From Acidimicrobiales bacterium (GTDB lineage: Bacteria > Actinomycetota > Acidimicrobiia > Acidimicrobiales > SZUA-35), in assembly GCA_041394345.1 (NCBI GenBank), contig JAWKIN010000003.1:62737-126736 (forward strand): a DNA stretch of 64,000 nucleotides. Reading direction: 5' to 3'. The translations under genes and the position numbers were made by a program. Of the stretch, positions 1 through 16,089 are shown in pieces. Within the stretch, counting starts at the first letter, position 1. Every line of letters begins with the position of its first letter. The notes beneath the pieces are model-generated. The model was not told the origin of the DNA. It worked only from the letters and a program-made list of their open reading frames with translations, and searched no databases.

Positions 1-236
1 TCGGGTGAGTGCTTGTCGTAGCCGAGATGTTCTTCCATCTCGACCTCGAGGCCAGCTTCGAGGACCTGTTTGGTCAGTTTGCCGAGCAGGCCCCCAGGGC
101 CGACCAGATCGACCCCGTCGGCACGGGCTTGTTCGACGAGCTGCTCGGCGATCGATGGATCAACCTGCCTTGGCAGCTCCAGTTCGGTTTCATCATTCAT
201 CTTCGGTGCCATCACGGCACCATCATCATTCATCAT
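1..236 (-). CDS. IS256-family (Mutator-type) transposase, first 78 codons; gene runs off the left edge of the window
   Basis: My reverse translation from ATG at 236 gives MMNDDGAVMAPKMNDETELELPRQVDPSIAEQLVEQARADGVDLVGPGGLLGKLTKQVLEAGLEVEMEEHLGYDKHSP. The GPGGLL..LTK.VLE..LE.EM..HLGYDKH block is the conserved N-terminal region of IS256/Mutator transposases. It is absent from the ORF track because it is open at the edge. The plus-strand ORFs at 5..360 are antisense artefacts. Confidence 0.75.
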   Translation of the reverse strand, partial: MMNDDGAVMAPKMNDETELELPRQVDPSIAEQLVEQARADGVDLVGPGGLLGKLTKQVLEAGLEVEMEEHLGYDKHSP

Positions 237-263
237 CAGAAAGTCCTTCCGGCGAGCCTCAGC

Positions 264-1204
264 TCAACCAGTCAGACCAGACCAGATACACCGTTTTCCT
301 GACAGTCCCAGCCGCCGCGTCGTGATGAGTGGAAAGGTGGTTGATGAACCCGGTTGCTGACTGCAACGACGCCACATAGGTATCACGATCGGTCTCGGTT
401 TCGACGCATAGGCCGGGTTCGGTTGGTTCTGATGCCCACACCACGCAATGAGGGAAGGTCGGATCGATTGGTGTTGCCGGCCCTGCGGGGTTGTGCGCAA
501 CACGACGGGGATGTGAGCAACTTGGATTGGGACGCCCACACCGAATGGGTCCTGGGCGCATGGCCGGGTGACGGTGCCGTCGGCTGCTTCGAAACGGATG
601 TTCTCGAGTGTGACGCGGGCGCCTTCGTTTCCGCTGATACTGACTTGGGTGAGTTTCTCGAGCCTGATGAAGAAATCGGTGCCTGGTCCGTTGTTGGTGT
701 AGACGAGGGCGTCTGCTCGTCGTTGTTCGAGCACGGTGGGTCGGTATGGGGTTGACCAGCCGTGGGAATCGAGGCTGGCGCTGACGGTGCCGTCAGTGTT
801 CGCCCGGTAGAGATCAAAAAGAAGCAGCAAACCTTCATCCTTGGCTACCTCCATGTCGTTTGCCATGTCTTTGCCGAGCTGTTCGTAGTCGATGGATACA
901 TACGGGCTGAGCCAGCCCGGCACCAGGCCTTCAATCCTGACGCCCATATCGTCAAGTAAGTCCTCGGCGTAGGCAGCCAGGCTGTCCCATTGCCCCAGGT
1001 AGTGCTCATCGAAGTTGTCGAGTGCTTCTTCGTTTTCTGTGCCGACGATCTGAGCCCAGTGAGCGAACGCTGGGCCGTGCAGCGTGAGCCCGATAGCGAT
1101 GCGTGAGATCGTCCTGATGCTCTCATACTCATGCGGTTCGAAGGCTCCGAAGTGTTCATAGTCATGTATTGCCCATTCCTCTGCGTCTGGTTGTTTGGAT
1201 GCTC
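264..1204 (-). pseudogene. ardA: ArdA-family antirestriction protein homologue with its 5' end displaced by the IS3 element and an unassigned ~180-aa C-terminal extension
   Basis: This is ORF 264..1235 (-). Residues ~14-145 (KQPDAEEWAIHDYEHFGAF...FDEHYLGQWDSLAAYAEDLLDDMG...YVSIDYEQLGKDMANDMEVAKDEGLLLLFDLY) match the ArdA signature (EEWAIHDYE.F, YIDYE..G.D). The first ~10 codons of the called ORF (MRCHLHVQQT) are encoded by the IS3 left inverted repeat. The distal ~180 codons have no family I recognise and run toward the IS256 end. Confidence 0.55.
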
Positions 1205-1272
1205 GGGTCTGCTGCACGTGTAGGTGACATCTCACATGACTTGCCTGCGGGCTTGTCTGGAAGGATGTTCAC

Positions 1273-1566
1273 ATGCCCAAGCCCTATCCCCGCGAGTTCC
1301 GCGACGACGTGATCCGAGTCGCCCGCAACCGCGACGACGGTGTCACCCTCGAGCAGGTCGCCAAGGACTTCGGGATCCATCCGATGACCTTGTCGAATTG
1401 GATCAGCAAAGACTCGATCGATAACGGCACCAAGCCGGGTGTCACGTCGTCGGAGTCGGTGGAGAACCGTGAGCTTCGCCGGCGGGTGAAGCTCCTCGAA
1501 CAAGAGAACGAAGTGTTGCGCCGTGCCGCCGCTTATCTGTCCCAGGCGAACCTGCCGGGAAAATGA
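1273..1566 (+). CDS. IS3-family transposase OrfA (HTH plus leucine-zipper-like C-terminus)
   Basis: The 97-aa ORF reads MPKPYPREFRDDVIRVARNR...LEQVAKDFGIHPMTLSNWI...ENRELRRRVKLLEQENEVLRRAAAYL, which is the typical IS3 OrfA architecture. Confidence 0.9.
   Translation: MPKPYPREFRDDVIRVARNRDDGVTLEQVAKDFGIHPMTLSNWISKDSIDNGTKPGVTSSESVENRELRRRVKLLEQENEVLRRAAAYLSQANLPGK
1557..1563 (+). promoter_or_regulatory. Programmed -1 ribosomal frameshift heptamer G GGA AAA joining orfA to orfB
   Basis: In the orfA frame the sequence reads CCG GGA AAA TGA. The heptamer G_GGA_AAA fits X_XXY_YYZ. After a -1 slip the next codon is ATG at 1563, which is the orfB frame. Confidence 0.7.
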
Positions 1567-2438
1567 TGTTCCCGCTCGTCCGCGAGCTTGCCGCCGACGG
1601 GATCCCCGTCGCGGTGACGTGCCGGGTTCTCGATCTTTGCCGCCAGCAGTACTACCGGTGGCTGACCGCACCGGTCACCGACCAAGAACTCGACCACGCC
1701 CATCTCACCAACGCGCTCTTCGACGCCCATCGTGACGACCCCGAGTTCGGCTACCGGTTCCTCGCCGACGAGGCCCGCCAGGCCGGCCACGATGCGTGTG
1801 ACCGGACGGTGTGGCGGATCTGCGCGGACAACGGCTGGTGGTCGGTGTTCGGCAAGAAGAAGAACCGGAAGAAGTCAACGCCGGGAACACCGGCCCATGA
1901 CGATCTGGTGCGCCGCGTGTTCACCGCCGAACGGCCGAACGAACTGTGGCTCACCGATTTGACCGAGCATCGCACCGACGAAGGAAAGCTCTACCTGTGT
2001 GCGATCAAGGACGTGTTCTCGAACCGGATCGTCGGCTATTCGATCGACGATCGGATGAAGGCACGACTCGCTGTCACCGCGCTCGACAACGCCGTCGCCC
2101 GCCGCGGCGATGTCGCGGGTTGTGTCCTGCATTCGGATCGAGGGTCGCAATTTCGTGCACGGAAACTGCATCGTGCGCTCGCCCGTCATGAGATGGTCGG
2201 CTCGATGGGCCAGGTTGGTTCGGCCGGTGACAACGCAGCAATGGAATCGTTTTTCTCACTGCTGCAGAAGAACGTTCTCAACCGACGGCGCTGGGCCACA
2301 CGCGAGGAGCTGCGGATCGCGATCGTGACCTGGATCGAGCGGACCTACCACCGACGCCGCCGGCAAGCACGCCTCGGCCGATTGACCCCCATCGAATACG
2401 AAACCATCATGAACCCTCAGACAGCAATCGCTGCCTGA
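1563..2438 (+). CDS. IS3-family transposase OrfB (DDE/rve integrase core)
   Basis: The 291-aa ORF carries a DDE triad context: LWLTDLTEH, VLHSDRGSQF, NAAMESFFSLLQKN. It overlaps the orfA stop by 4 nt in the -1 frame. Confidence 0.9.
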   Translation: MMFPLVRELAADGIPVAVTCRVLDLCRQQYYRWLTAPVTDQELDHAHLTNALFDAHRDDPEFGYRFLADEARQAGHDACDRTVWRICADNGWWSVFGKKKNRKKSTPGTPAHDDLVRRVFTAERPNELWLTDLTEHRTDEGKLYLCAIKDVFSNRIVGYSIDDRMKARLAVTALDNAVARRGDVAGCVLHSDRGSQFRARKLHRALARHEMVGSMGQVGSAGDNAAMESFFSLLQKNVLNRRRWATREELRIAIVTWIERTYHRRRRQARLGRLTPIEYETIMNPQTAIAA

Positions 2439-2481
2439 TCAACCTGTCACCTGATCGTGCAGCAGACCCCAGCCCTATTCA

Positions 2482-2837
2482 ATGCGGATCAAGTCTGAGG
2501 ACAACCCCTTCAACATCGGTTTGGCGATCACCTGGCGGGTTCAGGACCCAGACAGTGATGAGCACCTGTAGCGGGTCTGGATCGCCTGTCACTTCGACGA
2601 ACCGGTACGTACCGGGATCGTCATCGGGCCGTGGTGTCTCGACCCCCACCCCAACGCAATCACGGCGTCACGCGACAAAGCAAACAAATTGACAGCCGCC
2701 GACCGAACCGAACTCGAAGAACTCGAGTTCCTCATGAACAACCCGATCAACTTGTCGCGGGAGACGACTGGCTCAAAGAACCCGTTTCGATCGTCGACCC
2801 ACGAAACTTCGTGTATCCAGACACAACGAAAGACTAA
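2482..2837 (+). pseudogene. Small hypothetical gene (in-frame TAG at 2569 and a frame change near 2745)
   Basis: It starts at ATG 2482: MRIKSEDNPFNIGLAITWRVQDPDSDEHL*RVWIACHFDEP...KLTAADRTELEELEFLMNNP. After a shift it continues DQLVAGDDWLKEPVSIVDPRNFVYPDTTKD. Its TAA (2835-2837) overlaps the ATG of the next ORF (TAATG), which suggests translational coupling. I recognise no family. Confidence 0.3.
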
Positions 2838-3019
2838 TGGCCGGGCTCCACCTCCAAGAACTCCTCATCGTCGTAGTGATAGTGTTGGCTGTCCCCTTCA
2901 CGCTCGCAGCCCTCATCATCATCTGCAGCCGCAAGAACCATCACCAACAAACTGACCCGCCAACAGACCAAGCAGTTACCCCAACCCACAGCGACGGCGA
3001 CACGACTATGAGCGCTTGA
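2837..3019 (+). CDS. Small predicted single-pass membrane protein (60 aa)
   Basis: The ORF has one hydrophobic span (LLIVVVIVLAVPFTLAALIIICS). Its start overlaps the stop of the upstream ORF. Confidence 0.35.
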   Translation: MAGLHLQELLIVVVIVLAVPFTLAALIIICSRKNHHQQTDPPTDQAVTPTHSDGDTTMSA

Positions 3020-3026
3020 TTGAATT

Positions 3027-3257
3027 GTGCTCACGGACGAGATGAGAGCCGTAGCGAAACTGAAAACCGCACAAGCAGCCGACCTCACGGTCTTGCAAGC
3101 CCAGATGTTGAAGCGTGTGCGGAACGGCAGAGACGATCGAGCGATTGACCCGCACGCAACAAAGGGCAATGGCATCCCTCGTCGAACTCGGGTACTCGAG
3201 ACAGGGCCTAGTGGCAATCTGATCGTCACACCCACAATCGCCGAGGTGCTGCAGTAG
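3027..3257 (+). CDS. Hypothetical 76-aa protein
   Basis: The ORF begins 8 nt after the preceding stop and has plausible composition (MLTDEMRAVAKLKTAQAADLTVLQAQMLKRVRNGRDD...). I recognise no family. Confidence 0.3.
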   Translation: MLTDEMRAVAKLKTAQAADLTVLQAQMLKRVRNGRDDRAIDPHATKGNGIPRRTRVLETGPSGNLIVTPTIAEVLQ

Positions 3258-3289
3258 CGCGGTCCCACGCCTTGGGTGGGCGGCACCCA

Positions 3290-3634
3290 CCTTGGCAGGG
3301 TCGTGATGTCTGGGAGGATCAGTGACCTCCCCAACACAAGCCCCCACATGAAATAGTCTTCGACCGTCATCGGCAACTCGCCGGTGATTTTTCGACGTAG
3401 ATAAACCACAGGTGCATTCAACGCTTCAGCGAAATCTGGCGTTGTCCATTCGAGCTCGACGAATAGTCTTCGCACCTCGATCACGGCTCGGTGCTGTTGG
3501 AAGGCCGCCATCGAGCGTGCCTTCTCCACACGATCTGCTTGCTCGTCCCAGAGCGCGGCAGAATCCCGCCCGAACAGGGCGGGATTCTTCATGTAGGTCC
3601 TTGGTTCAAATCGTGACCGTGTCATGCGTGACAT
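3290..3634 (-). CDS. XRE-like helix-turn-helix protein; 3' boundary undefined
   Basis: This is the N-terminal ~115 codons of ORF 2834..3634 (-). The segment IEVRRLFVELEWTTPDFAEALNAPVVYLRRKITGELPMTVEDYFMWGLVLG fits an HTH_XRE layout. The remaining ~150 codons are Cys/Trp-rich, overlap the plus-strand cassette and look non-coding, so a lost stop or frameshift is likely. A strong hairpin (3561-3587) lies inside the first 25 codons, so the true start may be a downstream Met. Confidence 0.4.
3561..3587. terminator. Strong GC hairpin (11-bp stem, 5-nt loop), possible nrdJ / cassette terminator
   Basis: The hairpin is GAATCCCGCCC-gaaca-GGGCGGGATTC. It lies about 130 nt downstream of the nrdJ stop on the minus strand. 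The T-tract is weak (TTC on the plus strand). Confidence 0.35.
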
Positions 3635-3697
3635 CCGTGACCGGATTTGGACATCGCGTGACCGGATTCTGACATTCAGTGACCAGAACCCGGTGAC
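3613..3697 (+). repeat. Array of six same-orientation GTGAC-core repeats, including a 19-bp direct repeat with 21-bp phasing
   Basis: GTGAC occurs at 3613, 3628, 3637, 3658, 3679 and 3693. CGTGACCGGATTTGGACAT (3636-3654) and CGTGACCGGATTCTGACAT (3657-3675) share 17/19 positions. The array sits in the intergenic gap between the nrdJ stop (3716) and the XRE-like gene start (3634). Confidence 0.65.
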
Positions 3698-3715
3698 ACG
3701 AGATGACCGTTCACA

Positions 3716-6521
3716 CTAGCTACAGCCGCTGGTGTTGCCGCAGTCGGGGCACGCATGACAGGACCCAGCACGCTGCATCTTGATGCCGCACTGCATGCAG
3801 ATCGGTGCATGCGGGTCACTGACGGGCGCTGAGCTGTGCCCGGTTGCCGCTTCCTTGGCGACGAGGTCAATCATCGCCGCCGGCGACTCGATCGACGGCT
3901 TGTCGACCGGCAGCTCACTACCTTGCACCGTGGAGGCCTCTTCGACGCCCGGCAGGGTCTGCTGGGTGCGCTCGGAGGTGGTGAAAATACCAAGGTCGGC
4001 GCGCTCTTCGTAGGGGATGTAGAGCACGGCAAGCTTGCGGAACAGGTAGTCGATGATCGAGGTCGCGATACGAATATCAGGATCATCGGTCATGCCAGCT
4101 GGCTCGAACCGCATGCCAGTGAACGTCTCGACGAAGTTGCGCAAGGGCACGCCGTACTGAAGGCCATGGCTCAGAGAAATAGCAAGCGCATCCATGATGC
4201 CCGCCAACGTTGAACCCTGCTTGGAGACCCGAAGGAAGACCTCGCCGGGGCGCCCGTCCTCGTATTCGCCAACCGTGACGAACCCTTTGCAGTCGGCGAC
4301 GCGGAACTCGAAGGTTCGCGACGAACGGTTGCGAGGGAGGCGCTCACGAACGGGCTTGTAGACAACCTTCTCAAGTACCTCGGTGACCTTGATCGCCGCA
4401 TCGGCGACACCAGCGGCCGCCGCTGGCGTAGCGTCGTCCTTCTTGGCCGTCGAGAGAGGCTGGCCGACCTTGCAGTTGTCGCGATAGATGGCGACGGCCT
4501 TGACACCCATGCGCCACGCATCCATGTGGAGTTGCTCGACGTCTTCGACGGTTGCGTCCTCTGGCATGTTGACCGTCTTGGAGATGGCGCCCGAGATGAA
4601 CGGCTGCACGGCAGCCATCATCTTGACGTGGCCGAGGTAGTGGATCGTGTTGTCGCCCATTGAGCAGGCGAACACGTCAACGTGCTCAGGCTTGAGGTGT
4701 GGCGCACCCATGATCGACTTATTGAGGTCGAGGTAGGCCGCAATCTCAACGATCTGACTATCGCTGTAGCCCAAGCGTCGCAAGGCACGCGGCACCGACT
4801 GATTGACAATGGTCATCGTGCCGCCGCCGACCAACTTCTTCATCTTCATGAGGCCGAGGTCGGGCTCGATGCCCGTCGTGTCGCAGTCCATCAGCAGACC
4901 GATGGTGCCCGTTGGGGCCAGCACCGTCGCCTGGGCGTTGCGCACACCGACCTGGAGGCGCCAGCTCACAGGTTGCGTCCCATGCTTCTTGGGCCGCACC
5001 GAGGATGTCGACCGGGGCGAGCCTTTCGTCGATATCGGCGGTGGCCGAACGGTGCTGTTCGAGCACTCGCAACATCGGCTCACGGTTGACTCATAGGCCG
5101 GCATGGACCCATGCGAGCAGCCGTCTTGACGGAGGTGGGAGATAGGCGTGGCCCGTCAGCCGTGGAGCGTGGGCGGGCGTAGGCGCGGCCCGCTTCGGAG
5201 TCGTAGGCCAAATGAGGTTCATCAGCAAGGCGCCGATGTTGGCATATTGAGGCCGAGTTGACGGAATTGGCGAGAGGTCTCACCGTGATGCCTTCTGTCG
5301 GGTAGTCGGCTCGGCCAACGAGGATCTCCTGAGCAGAAGAAATGCTCGATCGCCACCTTGTAGCCCTCAACGTTGAACGTGTCGTCGTCGTTGGTGAAGC
5401 CCATGAGGTTGAGGCTGGCGAGATTGCACGCCGAGTTGTCGAGGTGCATGTATTCGCTGCACGGGTTGGAGCCGTTGATCTTGCCGGTCACCGCCGAGGT
5501 GTGCCAGCGGTTGATCGTCGAGTCGAACTGCATGCCCGGATCAGCACATTCCCAGCTGGCCTGGGAGATCTGGCGTGATCAGCTCACGGGCCTTGACGAC
5601 TCGGACAACGTCGCCCGTCGTACGGGCGATGAGTTTCCAGTCGCCATCGGCTTCGACGGCTTCCATGAATTCGTCGGTGACCCGGATGGAGTTGTTGGCG
5701 TTTTGATATTGGATCGAGTGGCTGTCGGCGCCATCATCCATGTCGAAACCGGCGTCGCCGAGGACGCGGGCCTTGCGTTCCTTCAATGGCCTTGCACCAG
5801 AGGAACTTTCGATTGGAAACGATCGACGTCGAGCATGACCATCTTGGCAGCCCGACGTGTCTTTCCGCCGTCTACGGTGCCGAGCCGACGAGTCGGCGCC
5901 ACGCATGAAGCTGACGGGCCCCGACGCAGTGCCACCACCCTTGAGCAGTTCGTAGCTCGAGCGGGATCTTCGAAAGGTTGACACCAGCACCGAGCCACCC
6001 TTAAAGATGGAAGCCTTCCTCGACGTACCAGTTGAGAATTGCGTCCATCTTGTCGTCGACGGCCAGATGAAACAGGCGGAGTGCTTGCTGGGGCACGCCC
6101 TCGACGCCGATGTTGAACCAGACGGGTGAGTTGAACGCACCCTTTGGTGGATGATGAGGTACTTCAACTCGTCGGAGCAGATCTGGGCCTCGTCCTCGCT
6201 CACTGTGAAGTAGCCGCCCTCACGGCCCCACGCAGTGATGGTGTCGACAACCCGGTCGGCCACGGTCTTGAGTGACGACTCGCGCTCTGGAGTTCCTGGA
6301 TTACCACGGAAGTACTTCTGGGCGAGGATGTTGGTGGCGTTTACCGACCAAGTTGACGGGACCTCGACGCCCAACTGTTCGAAGGCCACCTCGCCCGTCT
6401 TCCAATTGGAGATGCGAGCGTCACGCTTCTCCCAGATCACGGTGTCGTACGGATGGATGCCTTCGGTGGTGAAGTGGCGGCGGAGGACCAATACCGGTCT
6501 GCTTTCGGGGGCAAGTGTCAT
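3716..6521 (-). pseudogene. nrdJ: Class II (adenosylcobalamin-dependent) ribonucleotide reductase NrdJ, at least 4 frame changes as sequenced
   Basis: ORF 3716..5104 ends ...[30 protein letters not shown] 5222..5533 carries the active-site motif NPCSEYMHLDNSACNLASLNL. ORF 5783..5998 carries GGKTRRAAKMVMLDVD. ORF 5541..6908 carries the N-terminus from ATG 6521 (MTLAPESRPVLVLRRHFTTEGIHPYD..ILAQKYFRG..SACFI..IFKGGS..LKGGGTASGPVSFMRGAD..QYQNANNSIRVTDEFM). GGAAG lies 8 nt upstream of the ATG. Confidence 0.9.
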
Positions 6522-6649
6522 TACAACTTCCTGGAATGAGTCCTGAGGGACTCGATATGTGAGGGAAGGTAGCGCCACCGGGCCACGTCGTTGTGGCTGC
6601 GATGTCGATACCAATGATGTCGCTTCCGGACAAGGTGTCCGGCTGGGGG

Positions 6650-6713
6650 GTGACGTGGAAAAGTGACGTGTCGGAAAGTGACGTGTCGGGCTGGTAGTGA
6701 CGGAGGACGTCAC
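6650..6713 (+). repeat. GTGACG/ACGTCAC repeat cluster in the nrdJ 5' leader
   Basis: GTGACG occurs at 6650, 6663, 6678 and 6697, with inverted CGTCAC at 6708. There is a perfect tandem AAGTGACGTGTCGG at 6661-6674 and 6676-6689 (15-bp period). GTGACG-gagga-CGTCAC forms a 6-bp hairpin at 6697-6713. Confidence 0.65.
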
Positions 6714-6912: not shown

Positions 6913-6928
6913 ACACTACATCTTGTGT
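6913..6928. promoter_or_regulatory. NrdR box
   Basis: ACACTACATCTTGTGT matches 14/16 positions of the published NrdR consensus acaCwAtATaTwgtgt. It lies upstream of nrdJ, and nrdR itself is encoded at 13999..14469. A second, poor candidate (ACACTAGATGGAGTAG, 6954-6969) is not convincing. Confidence 0.55.
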
Positions 6929-7594
6929 TTCTCAGGTCCTCGGAGAGAACGACACACTAGATGGAGTAGACATACAACACTGAAATTACATCGCTGTCAA
7001 CGACTGTGAACAAGATACTCAGGGGGTCTGACAGTGTTCGGGGCAAGTCCTGCTTGGCTTGCTGTGAGGATGACCACACACCGTGTTTTGGTCAGGAAAG
7101 AAACTTTTTCCGATCTGGTCGACATCCATCCGAACCGCTCAGATTCGACTCGCTTCAGGTTGAAAAAGAACATGACCGGCGAGACCGGTCAGCTGAGCGG
7201 GTCGAGGTTGGCAACCGCAAGGCATCCGATGCCCGCTGCGTCCACCCAAGGGCAACGTACGTGCGCCCGGCCATACCGCTACACCGGACCGCCTGACTGG
7301 TCGTTCAAAACCATAGGGTCTCGCTCCTGTGGATCGTGTGTGGACGACCCTGTGTATTCATGTGAATTCGCGAAGAATTTGTGGACACCACGCTTGGCGA
7401 GTCGCACCGCCCGGAGAGAACAAAACCCGTCAGATACTCGGCTTTGGCCCGAGTGGCGTAGCTTCTGACGCCACTCGAGCGATTCGCCGGGCCGACTGGA
7501 GCTAAGACTTCTTACCCAGAACGCCCCGCTGGCACTGATTCGATGGCACAATTTCGGGCCGCAGATCGACTGTTGCGGAACAGTCGTGCGGTCC

Positions 7595-13998: not shown

Positions 13999-14469
13999 CT
14001 AGGCCAGTTGCTCAGACTGGTCGTCGCGCTTGATCAACGAGAGTTCACGCTCGAAGTCAGACACGTCGGTGAATCCCTTGTAGACACTGGCGAAACGCAG
14101 CGCACCGATGGGGTCGACCGGTCGCAGTAAATCGAGGACTTGCAGACCAACCCATTCCGAGGTGACGTCGCCGTCGACGCCGCGAGCCGCCACTTCTATC
14201 TGGGCCGCGATCTCTTCGAACAGTTCGGGACTACTCGAACGACCCTTCGCCGCCAGATTGAGACCCCGAACAATCGTCTCCCGGGAGAAGGGCTTGCGTT
14301 CACCGGATCGTTTGACCACCATCAACGGAGCGTTTTCATAACGCTCGAACGTGGTGAACCGGGCGCCGCACTTGGAACACTCGCGTCGCCGTCGAATCGA
14401 CGCACCCTCCTCGGACGCACGCGAATCGACCACACGAGTGCCGTCAAAGGTGCAAGAGGGGCAACGCAT
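13999..14469 (-). CDS. nrdR: Transcriptional repressor NrdR (zinc ribbon plus ATP-cone)
   Basis: The 156-aa ORF reads MRCPSCTFDGTRVVDSRASEEGASIRRRRECSKCGARFTTFERYE...LRFASVYKGF and is a full-length NrdR. Confidence 0.95.
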   Translation of the reverse strand: MRCPSCTFDGTRVVDSRASEEGASIRRRRECSKCGARFTTFERYENAPLMVVKRSGERKPFSRETIVRGLNLAAKGRSSSPELFEEIAAQIEVAARGVDGDVTSEWVGLQVLDLLRPVDPIGALRFASVYKGFTDVSDFERELSLIKRDDQSEQLA

Positions 14470-14534
14470 TGCCTCAGGCTAGCGCGCTTCGTCGGTTGAC
14501 TCGATTCAGTTCGCAGGTTGTGACCGAAGGTACA

Positions 14535-15161
14535 TCAATGGAGGTCGCCGGGAATGATGACCTGCTGCCCGGCCATGAGGTCGGCGCCCCCATTTCGGGC
14601 AACGAGCTGCTCGACGATGGGACGAACATCGGCCCCCTGAATCAGCGACGAGGCAATGGCCCAGTAGGTATCGCCCGGTTGGGCCACCACGGTGTATTCG
14701 CCAAGCTGGGCGTCAACCGGCGCGACGGCAACAACTTCGCTTCGAAGGCTGGTGTCAGCGGGCGGGCGGCCTTGCACCGCACTCATGAGGAGAAAGGCTG
14801 CCACCATGGCGCCGAGAACACCGAGCACTCGGCGGTCGAGTTCGCCAACCCAATCGGCGAAGCTACCAAGCGCTGCCACCGGAGTGTCGGGTTGATCGAC
14901 GAACGCCGGCACGCTCGCCAGATGACGATCTGGCCGATGACCCTCGACCCGGGTTGCCGTCCGCGGTGTTATCCGCCGGTCGGGTCGGGGCTGGTGTTGC
15001 CGGGTCTGGTGTTGTCGGGTCTGGGGTGAAGTAGTGCAACCATGAGAATAGTTTCCTCGGGGGGTGTGACGGTCACACCGTGGCGTGGAGGTGACTGTCA
15101 GCGAACAAGGGTTTCTGCCCCACGGGCCCCGCCGACGTATCGGTCGCTCAGTACATGTCAC
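14535..15161 (-). CDS. LysM-domain membrane protein (Rv2719c-like SOS-region gene); start uncertain
   Basis: The C-terminus EYTVVAQPGDTYWAIASSLIQGADVRPIVEQLVARNGGADLMAGQQVIIPG is a LysM domain. It is preceded by a TM segment (VLGVLGAMVAAFLLMSAV) and a basic, Pro-rich N-terminus. It sits between lexA (divergent) and nrdR, as in mycobacteria. The GTG at 15161 is one in-frame candidate start. The ORF track extends to 15356, across the SOS boxes. Confidence 0.7.
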   Translation of the reverse strand: MTCTERPIRRRGPWGRNPCSLTVTSTPRCDRHTPRGNYSHGCTTSPQTRQHQTRQHQPRPDRRITPRTATRVEGHRPDRHLASVPAFVDQPDTPVAALGSFADWVGELDRRVLGVLGAMVAAFLLMSAVQGRPPADTSLRSEVVAVAPVDAQLGEYTVVAQPGDTYWAIASSLIQGADVRPIVEQLVARNGGADLMAGQQVIIPGDLH

Positions 15162-15240
15162 GACTGACACGGTCTCATTCGATTTGGCCCAGGTCTCGCA
15201 GCCAGAGCGAATGAGGTGACGAGGTTTCCGCCCGAGGAAC

Positions 15241-15325
15241 TCGAACCGGTGTTCGATTACCTTATACGAACGCCCGTTCGCTGCCAACTGAAAATCGAAC
15301 AATTGTTTCACGAACAAGCATTCGC
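15241..15325. promoter_or_regulatory. Cluster of four LexA (SOS) boxes in the lexA / LysM-gene divergent region
   Basis: The four boxes are TCGAACcggtGTTCGA (15241-15256, perfect), aCGAACgcccGTTCGc (15266-15281), TCGAACaattGTTTCA (15295-15310) and aCGAACaagcATTCGc (15310-15325). The actinobacterial consensus is TCGAAC-N4-GTTCGA. Confidence 0.85.
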
Positions 15326-15447
15326 TTCTGCCGGAATCTATGGCATACTCACTCACAAGCCGGTTCTTGCCTCATCAGGACCGACCATCCGGTCGAACAC
15401 CTCCACCCGATCCAACACGCCGTGTCCACTACGTAAGGAATGCCCCC

Positions 15448-16089
15448 ATGACTGACCATCGTCTCAGCCGACGACAGCTGGCCATCCTCGAGACAATCGA
15501 GAAGCACATGACCGATCGCGGCTACCCGCCGTCGGTTCGTGAGATCGGCGATGCGGTTGGCCTCTCCTCACCCTCAACGGTGCATTCGCACCTCGGCACG
15601 CTTGAGCGCGAGGGCTACCTTCGGCGCGATCCATCAAAGCCACGCGCCATCGAGGTTCGCTGGGATCCAAACACGGGCGCCCACGACATCGAGCGCCGGC
15701 CGTTCCGCCATGTGCCGCTCGTAGGCTCGGTCGCCGCTGGCACCGACGTGCTTGCCGAACAACACATCGAAGAGACCATCCCGGTCCCCAGCGATCTCAC
15801 CGGCGACGGCGAGTTGTTCATGCTCATCGTTCGGGGCGACTCAATGATCGACGCTGGCATTCTGAGTGGCGACTATGTCGTTGCGAAGGTGCAAAAGACG
15901 GCGAAAGCGGGCGACATCATCGTCGTCGGCATCCCCGGCGAAGAGGCAACCGTCAAGACGTACTCCGGCGAGTCGACCAACAAGGAAATGGTCTTGTTGC
16001 CGTCGAACCCCACCATGGGCCCCATGCATTTCCCCACGACCGATGTCGAAATCTTCGGCAAGGTCGTCACCGTGATGCGGCGGCTCTAG
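15448..16089 (+). CDS. lexA: LexA repressor
   Basis: From ATG 15448 (AAGGAA lies 10 nt upstream) the protein reads MTDHRLSRRQLAILETIEKHMTDRGYPPSVREIGDAVGLSSPSTVHSHLGTLEREGYLRRD...VAAG...RGDSMIDAGI..GD..V. The ORF track starts earlier, at 15340. Confidence 0.95.
   Translation: MTDHRLSRRQLAILETIEKHMTDRGYPPSVREIGDAVGLSSPSTVHSHLGTLEREGYLRRDPSKPRAIEVRWDPNTGAHDIERRPFRHVPLVGSVAAGTDVLAEQHIEETIPVPSDLTGDGELFMLIVRGDSMIDAGILSGDYVVAKVQKTAKAGDIIVVGIPGEEATVKTYSGESTNKEMVLLPSNPTMGPMHFPTTDVEIFGKVVTVMRRL

Follow-up and report, generated by a model that had tools for sequence, protein, structure and literature searches.

The 64,000-nt stretch of DNA studied here (in the following, the window; contig JAWKIN010000003.1 of an Acidimicrobiales bacterium) carries an array of tandem, GTGAC-containing repeats. 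The array lies directly behind nrdJ, which encodes a class II B12-dependent ribonucleotide reductase, and it extends into the start of a small gene for a protein with a predicted XRE-type fold. It is real, non-random and evolutionarily conserved. A previous reading of the sequence alone (the original prediction) had offered three options for its function, i.e., an operator of the XRE-like protein, iterons of a plasmid- or ICE-type (integrative and conjugative element) origin, or an attachment or recombination site at an island boundary. The operator is the best supported of these, given that the gene is real and co-occurs with the array at nrdJ, although array and gene are also found apart. 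We therefore tentatively interpret the array as a putative operator of tandem sites at the nrdJ/xre junction to which the XRE-fold protein would bind, where the identity of the binding protein and the regulatory outcome are what we infer from the observations below.

On the plus strand, GTGAC cores are found at 3613, 3628, 3637, 3658, 3679 and 3693, i.e., six same-strand copies within 85 bp, each exactly where the original prediction had placed it. The three repeats at exact 21-bp steps that had been described are also recovered. A repeat finder reports three copies at 3634, 3655 and 3676 (steps of 21 and 21 bp) and additionally pairs the long units CGTGACCGGATTTGGACATCG and CGTGACCGGATTCTGACATTC, and Tandem Repeats Finder yields a period of 21 with 2.7 copies (3630-3684). 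With regard to rarity, the earlier argument that such a pentamer should hardly occur by chance applies to the cluster but not to the word itself. Within the 64-kb window, GTGAC is observed 166 times versus 191 expected occurrences and is thus not rare, while the array forms the densest same-strand GTGAC cluster of the whole 64 kb. Dinucleotide-preserving shuffling (300 replicates) gave a best cluster of 2-3 copies in 295 cases and of 4 copies in 5 cases, and never one of 6. That is, the clustering of GTGAC, rather than the pentamer count, is the exceptional feature and far beyond chance.

Both nrdJ and the XRE-like open reading frame (ORF) are encoded on the minus strand. The array is therefore located 3' of nrdJ and 5' of the XRE-like gene on one transcribed strand, on which the cores read GTCAC. 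It spans 3612-3715, i.e., it fills the 81 nt from the nrdJ stop codon (3716-3718) to the ATG of the XRE-like gene at 3634 and overlaps the start. The array had been placed immediately upstream of the XRE ORF; it does adjoin the start, but its last unit contains the start codon. In sense direction, the intergenic order is TAG-TGTGAACGGTCATCTCG-TGTCACCGGGTTCTGGTCAC-TGA-ATGTCAGAATCCGGTCAC-GC-GATGTCCAAATCCGGTCAC-GG-ATG. Within a unit, which measures about 21 bp, two unlike sub-motifs are combined, (G/A)ATGTC(C/A) and CCGGTCAC (both sense), at a distance of 9-12 bp.

The array opens with the post-stop motif TGTGAAC (3709-3715, minus strand, as are all units), which directly abuts the nrdJ stop codon. 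It is followed by unit A (TGTCACCGGGTTCTGGTCAC; 3679-3698), which has a long spacer (N9) and is matched by N9 units at the same place in three of the related loci introduced below (L009, L258, L262). Unit B (ATGTCAGAATCCGGTCAC; 3658-3675) is part of the in-register alignment with L009, L257 and L028. Unit C (GATGTCCAAATCCGGTCAC; 3637-3655) is identical to unit B at 17 of 19 positions, just as had been noticed before. Finally, unit D (GGATGTCACGCATGACACGGTCACG; 3612-3636) holds the ATG of the XRE-like gene (3634-3632) as well as an internal palindrome, TGTCA-CGCA-TGACA, and its start context (G/A)TCACGG-ATG-TC(A/G)-CG is common to the window and L257. The dyad symmetry of the units is restricted to a weak pseudo-dyad (TGWCC-N6-GGWCA), the spacer of which is N6, N7 or N9 across units and loci. 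Elsewhere in the window, the composite motif shows no enrichment (7 matches vs. 9.5 expected).

The array stretch 3635-3715 is free of stop codons and shares one reading frame with the two genes at its sides (27 codons; likewise 27 codons at 100-180 of L257 and 37 codons at 175-285 of L262), such that read-through of the nrdJ stop would fuse the two proteins. We nevertheless discard a coding function, because the substitutions between the window and L257 show no codon-position bias (11, 8 and 12 for the three positions). A seemingly conserved 'DVN' peptide in the +1 frame was rejected as well, since the respective peptides end at different lengths. By-eye motif readings as DnaA-box, Rex, CRP, parS, NrdR-box or RecA-independent promoter were each mismatched at several positions.

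The gene behind the array is a real gene of a rare, unnamed family (about 25 clusters). An exhaustive HMMER search provides 25 homologues, mostly of about 100-160 aa, and their alignment delimits a conserved part of 118 codons (3281-3634, minus strand), behind which the ORF of the window runs on to 2834 with an unrelated tail. Searches in Pfam and NCBIfam and a word-indexed protein search returned nothing for the XRE-like ORF, and an exact-product look-up of either start shows that it is not on record. Protein searches in phage and plasmid collections found no homologues, and DNA searches of 2400-3720 against such collections matched only the end of an IS3 element (see below). The N-terminus is conserved within the family and reads M-x-P-R-F-x-P-R-x-Y/F-L-x-x-P-x-x-F-G-R-D-x-x-A-x-W, followed by a helix-turn-helix with the motif L-R-R-K-L-x-G-E; the respective N-terminus in the window, encoded from the ATG at 3634, is MSRMTRSRFEPRTYMKNPALFGRD.

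This conservation also bears on a hairpin that had been taken to question the start of the ORF. The hairpin is real, but its stem comprises 12 bp at 3560-3588 rather than 11 bp at 3561-3587 (perfect stem 3560-3571/3577-3588, 5-nt loop, -24.2 kcal/mol, minus strand), and it covers codons 16-25 of the XRE-like gene. The conclusion drawn from it pointed in the wrong direction: homologues conserve residues encoded by the hairpin and upstream of it, and so the start is moved upstream to 3634 and the start codon into the last repeat unit. Nor is the hairpin an argument against the ORF, because it encodes K-N-P-A-L-F-G-R-D-S, which includes the most conserved motif of the family (P-A-L-F-G-R-D). Here, the stem core CCCGCCC/GGGCGGG corresponds to the Pro-Ala and Gly-Arg codons of the motif. 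The same 7-bp stem core is present in L257, a 14-bp hairpin is found at the homologous place in L009, and other members show weaker hairpins there.

Sequence-based domain assignments of the family are weak. Among 22 family members, Pfam matches were obtained to HTH_31 (8), HTH_3 (3) and HTH_26 (2), the best with an E-value of 0.002, and the window protein itself does not reach the curated HTH_3/HTH_31 cut-off (no Pfam or NCBIfam match). An AlphaFold2 model of the XRE-like protein has a mean predicted local distance difference test score (pLDDT) of 90.8 and a predicted template modelling score (pTM) of 0.83. The top PDB matches found with Foldseek all show the XRE/Cro fold, i.e., ClgR, HigA, HipB, controller proteins of restriction-modification systems (C.Esp1396I), lambda cI and DdrO, with probabilities of about 1.0 and target-normalised TM scores of about 0.6-0.7; the respective E-values are weak (0.02-0.2). 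The confident model thus predicts a five-helix, Cro/C1-type helix-turn-helix fold. Proteins of 414 aa encoded near the gene in L258 and L265 turned out to be unrelated.

For comparison, we used 80 nrdJ loci from species-representative genomes of GTDB. Homologous in-register arrays follow the nrdJ stop in at least six other contigs of distantly related, uncultured Acidimicrobiia, and the XRE-like gene is present in four of these six as well. In four independent contigs (window, L257, L258 and L262/L263), a XRE-like gene adjoins nrdJ on the same strand, and 4/4 have a homologous array in between, which in L257, L258 and L262/L263 is built of TGTC(C/A) and GGTCA(C) units. The XRE-like protein of L257 is 51% identical to that of the window. 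In both, exactly 81 nt separate the nrdJ stop from the ATG, and the start codon lies inside the last unit. In L258 and L262, too, the array occupies the space behind the nrdJ stop, at a distance of about 40-45 nt to the gene start.

Among the 80 nrdJ loci, the arrays of L009 and L028 align in register with that of the window. An array profile retrieves them with E-values of 3e-18 and 1e-14, respectively, where both had been included in the profile alignment. L054 shows the beginning of such an array, followed by the contig end. No member of the XRE family is detectable in L009, L028 and L054. In L009, the DNA next to the array resembles, by eye, a decayed remnant of the 5' end of the gene, which profile comparison does not confirm; the downstream ORF was thus rejected as a family member (profile probability 0.1) and is at most a decayed remnant. 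A second type of post-nrdJ array is present in L071, L073 and L074. It starts with TGTGAAC, is located within about 100 nt of the stop and repeats TCACGAAGTGACA-like units every 21-24 bp. Here, the homology between the loci covers nrdJ and the array and ends there, with unrelated DNA beyond and no XRE-like gene found in the available flank. A period of 21 bp is shared by the window, L009, L257 and L073, and L262 and L074 have one of 24 bp. As for the post-stop motif, TGT[GA]AA occurs within 16 nt after the nrdJ stop in 9/80 loci, compared to 2/1311 other 16-nt windows of the same flanks; L257 and L262 carry it too, as TGTAAA.

Family members away from nrdJ (L261, L264, L265-267, L268) have no such array. 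The one of L261 is located in an island beside smpB/ssrA. L260 (1-37) and L268 (385-410) share a palindrome, CCGCGCCATAGTCGCGG, just upstream of the gene start, neither being shown next to nrdJ, and L265 has the palindrome CGCGACATGTCGCG; both palindromes are possible operators of other family branches. In summary, wherever the gene is linked to nrdJ, it is accompanied by the array; the array itself, however, shows a closer association with nrdJ than with the gene. The comparison of junctions that had been proposed as a check did bring up in-register arrays at related loci, but, in the available flanks, no duplication of an attachment (att) site.

At the RNA level, the hairpin has a GC-rich stem but no U-tract, and a terminator scan finds no intrinsic terminator there. 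A perfect 11-nt inverted repeat (3620-3630/3750-3760) connects the start region of the XRE-like gene with a part of nrdJ that encodes C-H-A-C; in the transcript, the nrdJ stop and the complete array would lie between its two arms. The region 3545-3720 of the window folds with a z-score of -4.5 in sense versus -3.3 in antisense direction, and the sense value drops to -6.1 with the long-range stem of this repeat. Among the fold z-scores of 11 arrays, only those of the window, L258 and L262 are significant; L009 shows -1.5, and L257, L028, L071, L073 and L074 are about zero. For the consensus fold of L071, L073 and L074, the covariation term is zero and 1/18 predicted pairs is kept through two-sided change. 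Rfam provides nothing near threshold for the array region. We thus rejected the array as a general RNA structure, because the z-scores are near zero in five arrays and inconsistent across loci and no Rfam match exists.

Given these observations, the array may best be described as a control region that acts as DNA and would be bound by protein at 3-4 asymmetric sites in tandem, each about 21 bp long. Per site, one CCGGTCAC element would be paired with one ATGTC(C/A) element about one helical turn away, and the last site would cover the start codon of the regulator. The XRE-fold protein would presumably bind these sites cooperatively. Binding would set the regulator's own expression and probably also that of the variable genes behind it. 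Furthermore, it could gate transcription entering from nrdJ, since the nrdJ stop and the regulator start are not separated by a terminator. The 21-bp period and the alternation of the sub-motifs at about 10.5 bp suit a protein arranged along one face of the DNA. Among the structural neighbours with an XRE fold, several bind tandem operators upstream of the genes that encode them. Like the array, the operators OR1-OR3 of lambda, the four hipBA operators bound by HipB and the OL/OR C-boxes of C-proteins comprise several sites of 16-21 bp that are about two turns apart. They are likewise placed directly before, or overlap, the start of a small gene for an XRE-fold protein, with variable 'cargo' genes behind.

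The operator interpretation is weakened by a number of observations. Arrays with the same post-stop motif exist at nrdJ loci without an XRE homologue in the available flank (L028, L071, L073, L074). Conversely, family members not located at nrdJ lack the array, and three of them bear CGCG-type palindromes despite the conserved predicted recognition helix (xLRRKLxGE). XRE dimers usually bind dyads. In contrast to the known XRE operators, the array consists of asymmetric direct repeats of two unlike half-sites without clear dyads, i.e., the pseudo-dyad is weak and its spacing varies. The period of 24 in L262 and L074 is at odds with strict helical phasing. In addition, no promoter is recognisable: a scan of 3200-3900 on both strands, which was restricted to sigma-70-like promoters, found none. 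Unlike XRE operators, the array also abuts the stop codon of the upstream gene and persists in loci that have no regulator.

Alternatively, the array might be owned by nrdJ, as a 3'-flank or intercistronic element of its transcript or of the DNA directly behind its stop codon that would serve a host factor, with the XRE gene being a mere, if frequent, neighbour. The factor could be an RNA-binding protein that governs stability or processing of the mRNA 3' end, or a DNA-binding regulator. We consider this unlikely overall, yet it deserves serious attention. The element always starts at the nrdJ stop, has a single orientation and is present in nrdJ loci without XRE gene, and in L071, L073 and L074 the homology comprises nrdJ and the array and stops there. 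In L009, L024, L025 and L071, it is located between the stop and a terminator-like hairpin and would thus be part of the 3' untranslated region. The window's sense strand folds better than its antisense strand, in particular with the long-range stem, and a second GTGAC/GTCAC cluster is found in the window's nrdJ 5' leader. On the other hand, the fold z-scores are about zero in five arrays and only -1.5 in L009, no Rfam match is available, and pairs are hardly compensated in L071, L073 and L074. The 5' cluster is missing in the leader of L258. Moreover, the element is present in only about 10% of the nrdJ loci and can therefore not be needed for nrdJ function. A quite unlikely explanation, in our view, is that the array marks the end of a site-specific mobile element that targets the conserved 3' end of nrdJ, such that the repeats would be transposase or integrase sites and the XRE gene the first one inside. 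Tn7-type ends carry multiple TnsB sites of about 22 bp, and att sites carry arm-type sites. The junction falls exactly at the stop codon although the NrdJ proteins are only 62-77% identical, and the distribution is patchy, the closest relatives (L001-L008) being without the element. It opens with 5'-TGT, followed by 3-4 direct repeats within about 90 bp, and one family member resides in the island beside smpB/ssrA. Beyond the array, the DNA differs between loci and contains many genes of mobile or defence type. In the window, these are an ArdA-type anti-restriction gene (264-1235, minus strand; Pfam) and an IS3-family element (1273-2438, plus strand; identified from its translation and plasmid blastn matches), in which orfA and orfB overlap as is usual for such elements. 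The approximately 1 kb between the IS3 element and the XRE-like gene shows only weak coding signal. Behind the arrays of other loci, we find ISL3 and a weak reverse-transcriptase match (L258), an HNH-like ORF in L262 and an IS1380-like transposase in L073 (both recognised by eye from the translation), AbiE, likewise in L073, as well as Fic-like and reverse-transcriptase-like ORFs (L074 and L051, by eye). Junction, patchiness and the variable mobile and defence DNA suggest an insertion hotspot or an element end. With Tn7-like and Mu-like ends and att arm sites, the array shares the TGT start at the 3' end of a housekeeping gene, a series of direct repeats (about 20 bp each, all within 90 bp) and variable defence and mobile genes inside; that is, only the architecture agrees. 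In contrast to them, no transposase, TniQ/TnsD, integrase, second end or target duplication was found in the sequence available. In detail, integrase and Tn7-type genes (TnsA/B/C, TniQ) are absent from all flanks examined, and the search for a second end, an inverted copy or a duplicated core was negative both for the window and for 3-6 kb of flank in L258, L262, L009, L073 and L024. There is no integrase beside the putative att site in 1-3700 of the window; L009 has an integrase-fragment-like ORF (by eye) 2.7 kb away. The att or island-boundary function that had been suggested is thus not demonstrated: neither a second nrdJ 3' end (att core; window, L258, L262, L009) nor a second array is found in any available flank, where the element could extend beyond the sequence available. 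Furthermore, L024, L025 and L262 have housekeeping-looking genes within about 1 kb (by eye; a Pyr_redox-type oxidoreductase in the Pfam table), the 3' coding ends of nrdJ show no unusual similarity among loci with an array, and the XRE-like gene is without relatives in the phage and plasmid collections. About equally unlikely is a reading in which the repeats and TGTRAAS together act as a hitherto undescribed cis-element, by which the 3' flank of nrdJ would be labelled in Acidimicrobiia as a site for docking or insertion. Versions of the repeat that differ between lineages (ATGTCC/CCGGTCAC in the window, TCACGAAGTGACA in L071, L073 and L074) would each be read by a matching protein, and small mobile, defence and toxin-antitoxin modules, among them the XRE-fold gene, would collect behind it.

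The remaining candidates relate the repeats to known site types or to no function at all. We regard it as improbable that they are sites of an OmpR/PhoB-type response regulator such as MtrA, which binds 6-bp direct repeats that are 5 bp apart. On the plus strand, the array reads GTGACC-N5-TGGACA and GTGACC-N5-CTGACA, with the next GTGACC beginning at a distance of 4 bp, i.e., half-sites with a GAC core are arranged head-to-tail in steps of 10-11 bp, and GTGACC fits the Streptomyces MtrA consensus (G/T)T(G/A)ACC-N5-GT(G/T)ACN (PMC5650626). In contrast to MtrA and OmpR boxes, the second half-site is poor, with its match confined to the GAC core, the sites are located at the 3' end of a gene, and no response regulator gene is linked; also, the composite motif is not enriched in the window (see above). 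Still less probable is a functionless minisatellite that arose from tandem duplication around a gene start. The period is a multiple of three and varies from 21 to 24 across loci, and the units contain the ATG-TC start context. This is opposed by the in-register conservation, which includes the non-repeated post-stop motif, between genomes with about 70% identical NrdJ. The iterons of a plasmid- or ICE-type replication origin, proposed in the original prediction, find no support and are in our opinion the most improbable of all. Direct, asymmetric units of about 21 bp in 3-5 copies are indeed the classical iteron layout of plasmids and phages, and arrays of the same words exist inside genes of HTH_36/DnaD-like replisome organisers on the viral or metagenomic contigs L110, L235 and L196. 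The latter likeness is partly by construction, because the search pattern used to find these contigs selects tandem repeats. Unlike iterons, the array has no initiator, AT-rich unwinding element or DnaA boxes: initiator, helicase-loader and partition genes are absent near the array in all nrdJ loci, neither an AT-rich stretch (3400-3800) nor a DnaA-box cluster is found nearby, and Pfam matches near the array of the window are limited to nrdJ domains and ArdA, without any replication gene. Furthermore, the array is fixed at the nrdJ stop on chromosomal contigs. In the repeat-pattern scan, the number of matches in the viral collection was about our chance estimate, and none of the matches listed for metagenomes is linked to nrdJ. 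The CCGGTCA/ATGTCC-word arrays of L110 (1100-1260), L235 (about 1216) and L196 (about 3903) lie inside the HTH_36/DnaD-like genes. By analogy to phage lambda, they are probably origin iterons embedded in an initiator gene and probably unrelated to the nrdJ array, although they illustrate that words of this type are able to make up iterons.

The nrdJ gene of the window (3716-6521, minus strand; ATG at 6521, TAG at 3716-3718) is broken in frame three times. Pfam assigns Ribonuc_red_lgC and TSCPD to 3716-5104, and tblastn with the 977-aa NrdJ of L258 divides the gene into four collinear segments (frames -3/-1/-3/-1), the breaks being near 5576, 5248 and 4958. The breaks reflect either a pseudogene or indel errors of the assembly. 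The last piece is 100% identical to the NCBI protein 'hypothetical protein R2706_03540 [Acidimicrobiales bacterium]', while the next best NrdJ is only 77-79% identical; in an exact-product look-up, the nrdJ fragment P0001 is not on record. In the nrdJ 5' leader (6633-6713, minus strand), we observe the only other cluster of at least four same-strand GTGAC in the window. In sense direction, it comprises CGACACGTCACTTTC three times at a period of about 15 and then the palindrome CCGGACA-CCT-TGTCCGG. Similar CGTCAC(AC) repeats are present in the nrdJ leaders of L059, L002, L003 and L022, and absent from the leader of L258. Further upstream (about 6915-6990, minus strand), two palindromes, e.g., AACACAAGATGTAGTGTT, resemble NrdR boxes, judged by the known consensus only.

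Elsewhere in the window, nrdR (13999-14469, minus strand), a LysM-type gene and lexA (15340-16089, plus strand) occupy 13999-16089, which corresponds to the usual actinobacterial cluster. Its divergent region contains the SOS-box-like sequences TCGAACCGGTGTTCGA and CGAACGCCCGTTCG as well as GGTGTGACGGTCACACC (15064-15080) and ATGTCACGACTGACACGGTC (15155-15174). The latter agrees with array unit D at 18/20 positions, which may be chance (blast E-value of about 1).

Taken as a whole, the array is a familiar kind of element in a new form, attached to a new and rare regulator family. If it is the operator of the XRE-fold protein, the DNA target of this family would be defined, and a regulator would be wired onto the end of an essential gene for deoxynucleoside triphosphate synthesis in an uncultured actinobacterial class. 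If it is instead owned by nrdJ or by a mobile element, it would explain why the DNA past nrdJ keeps collecting defence and mobile genes, and it would provide a short sequence tag to find such hotspots in metagenomes.

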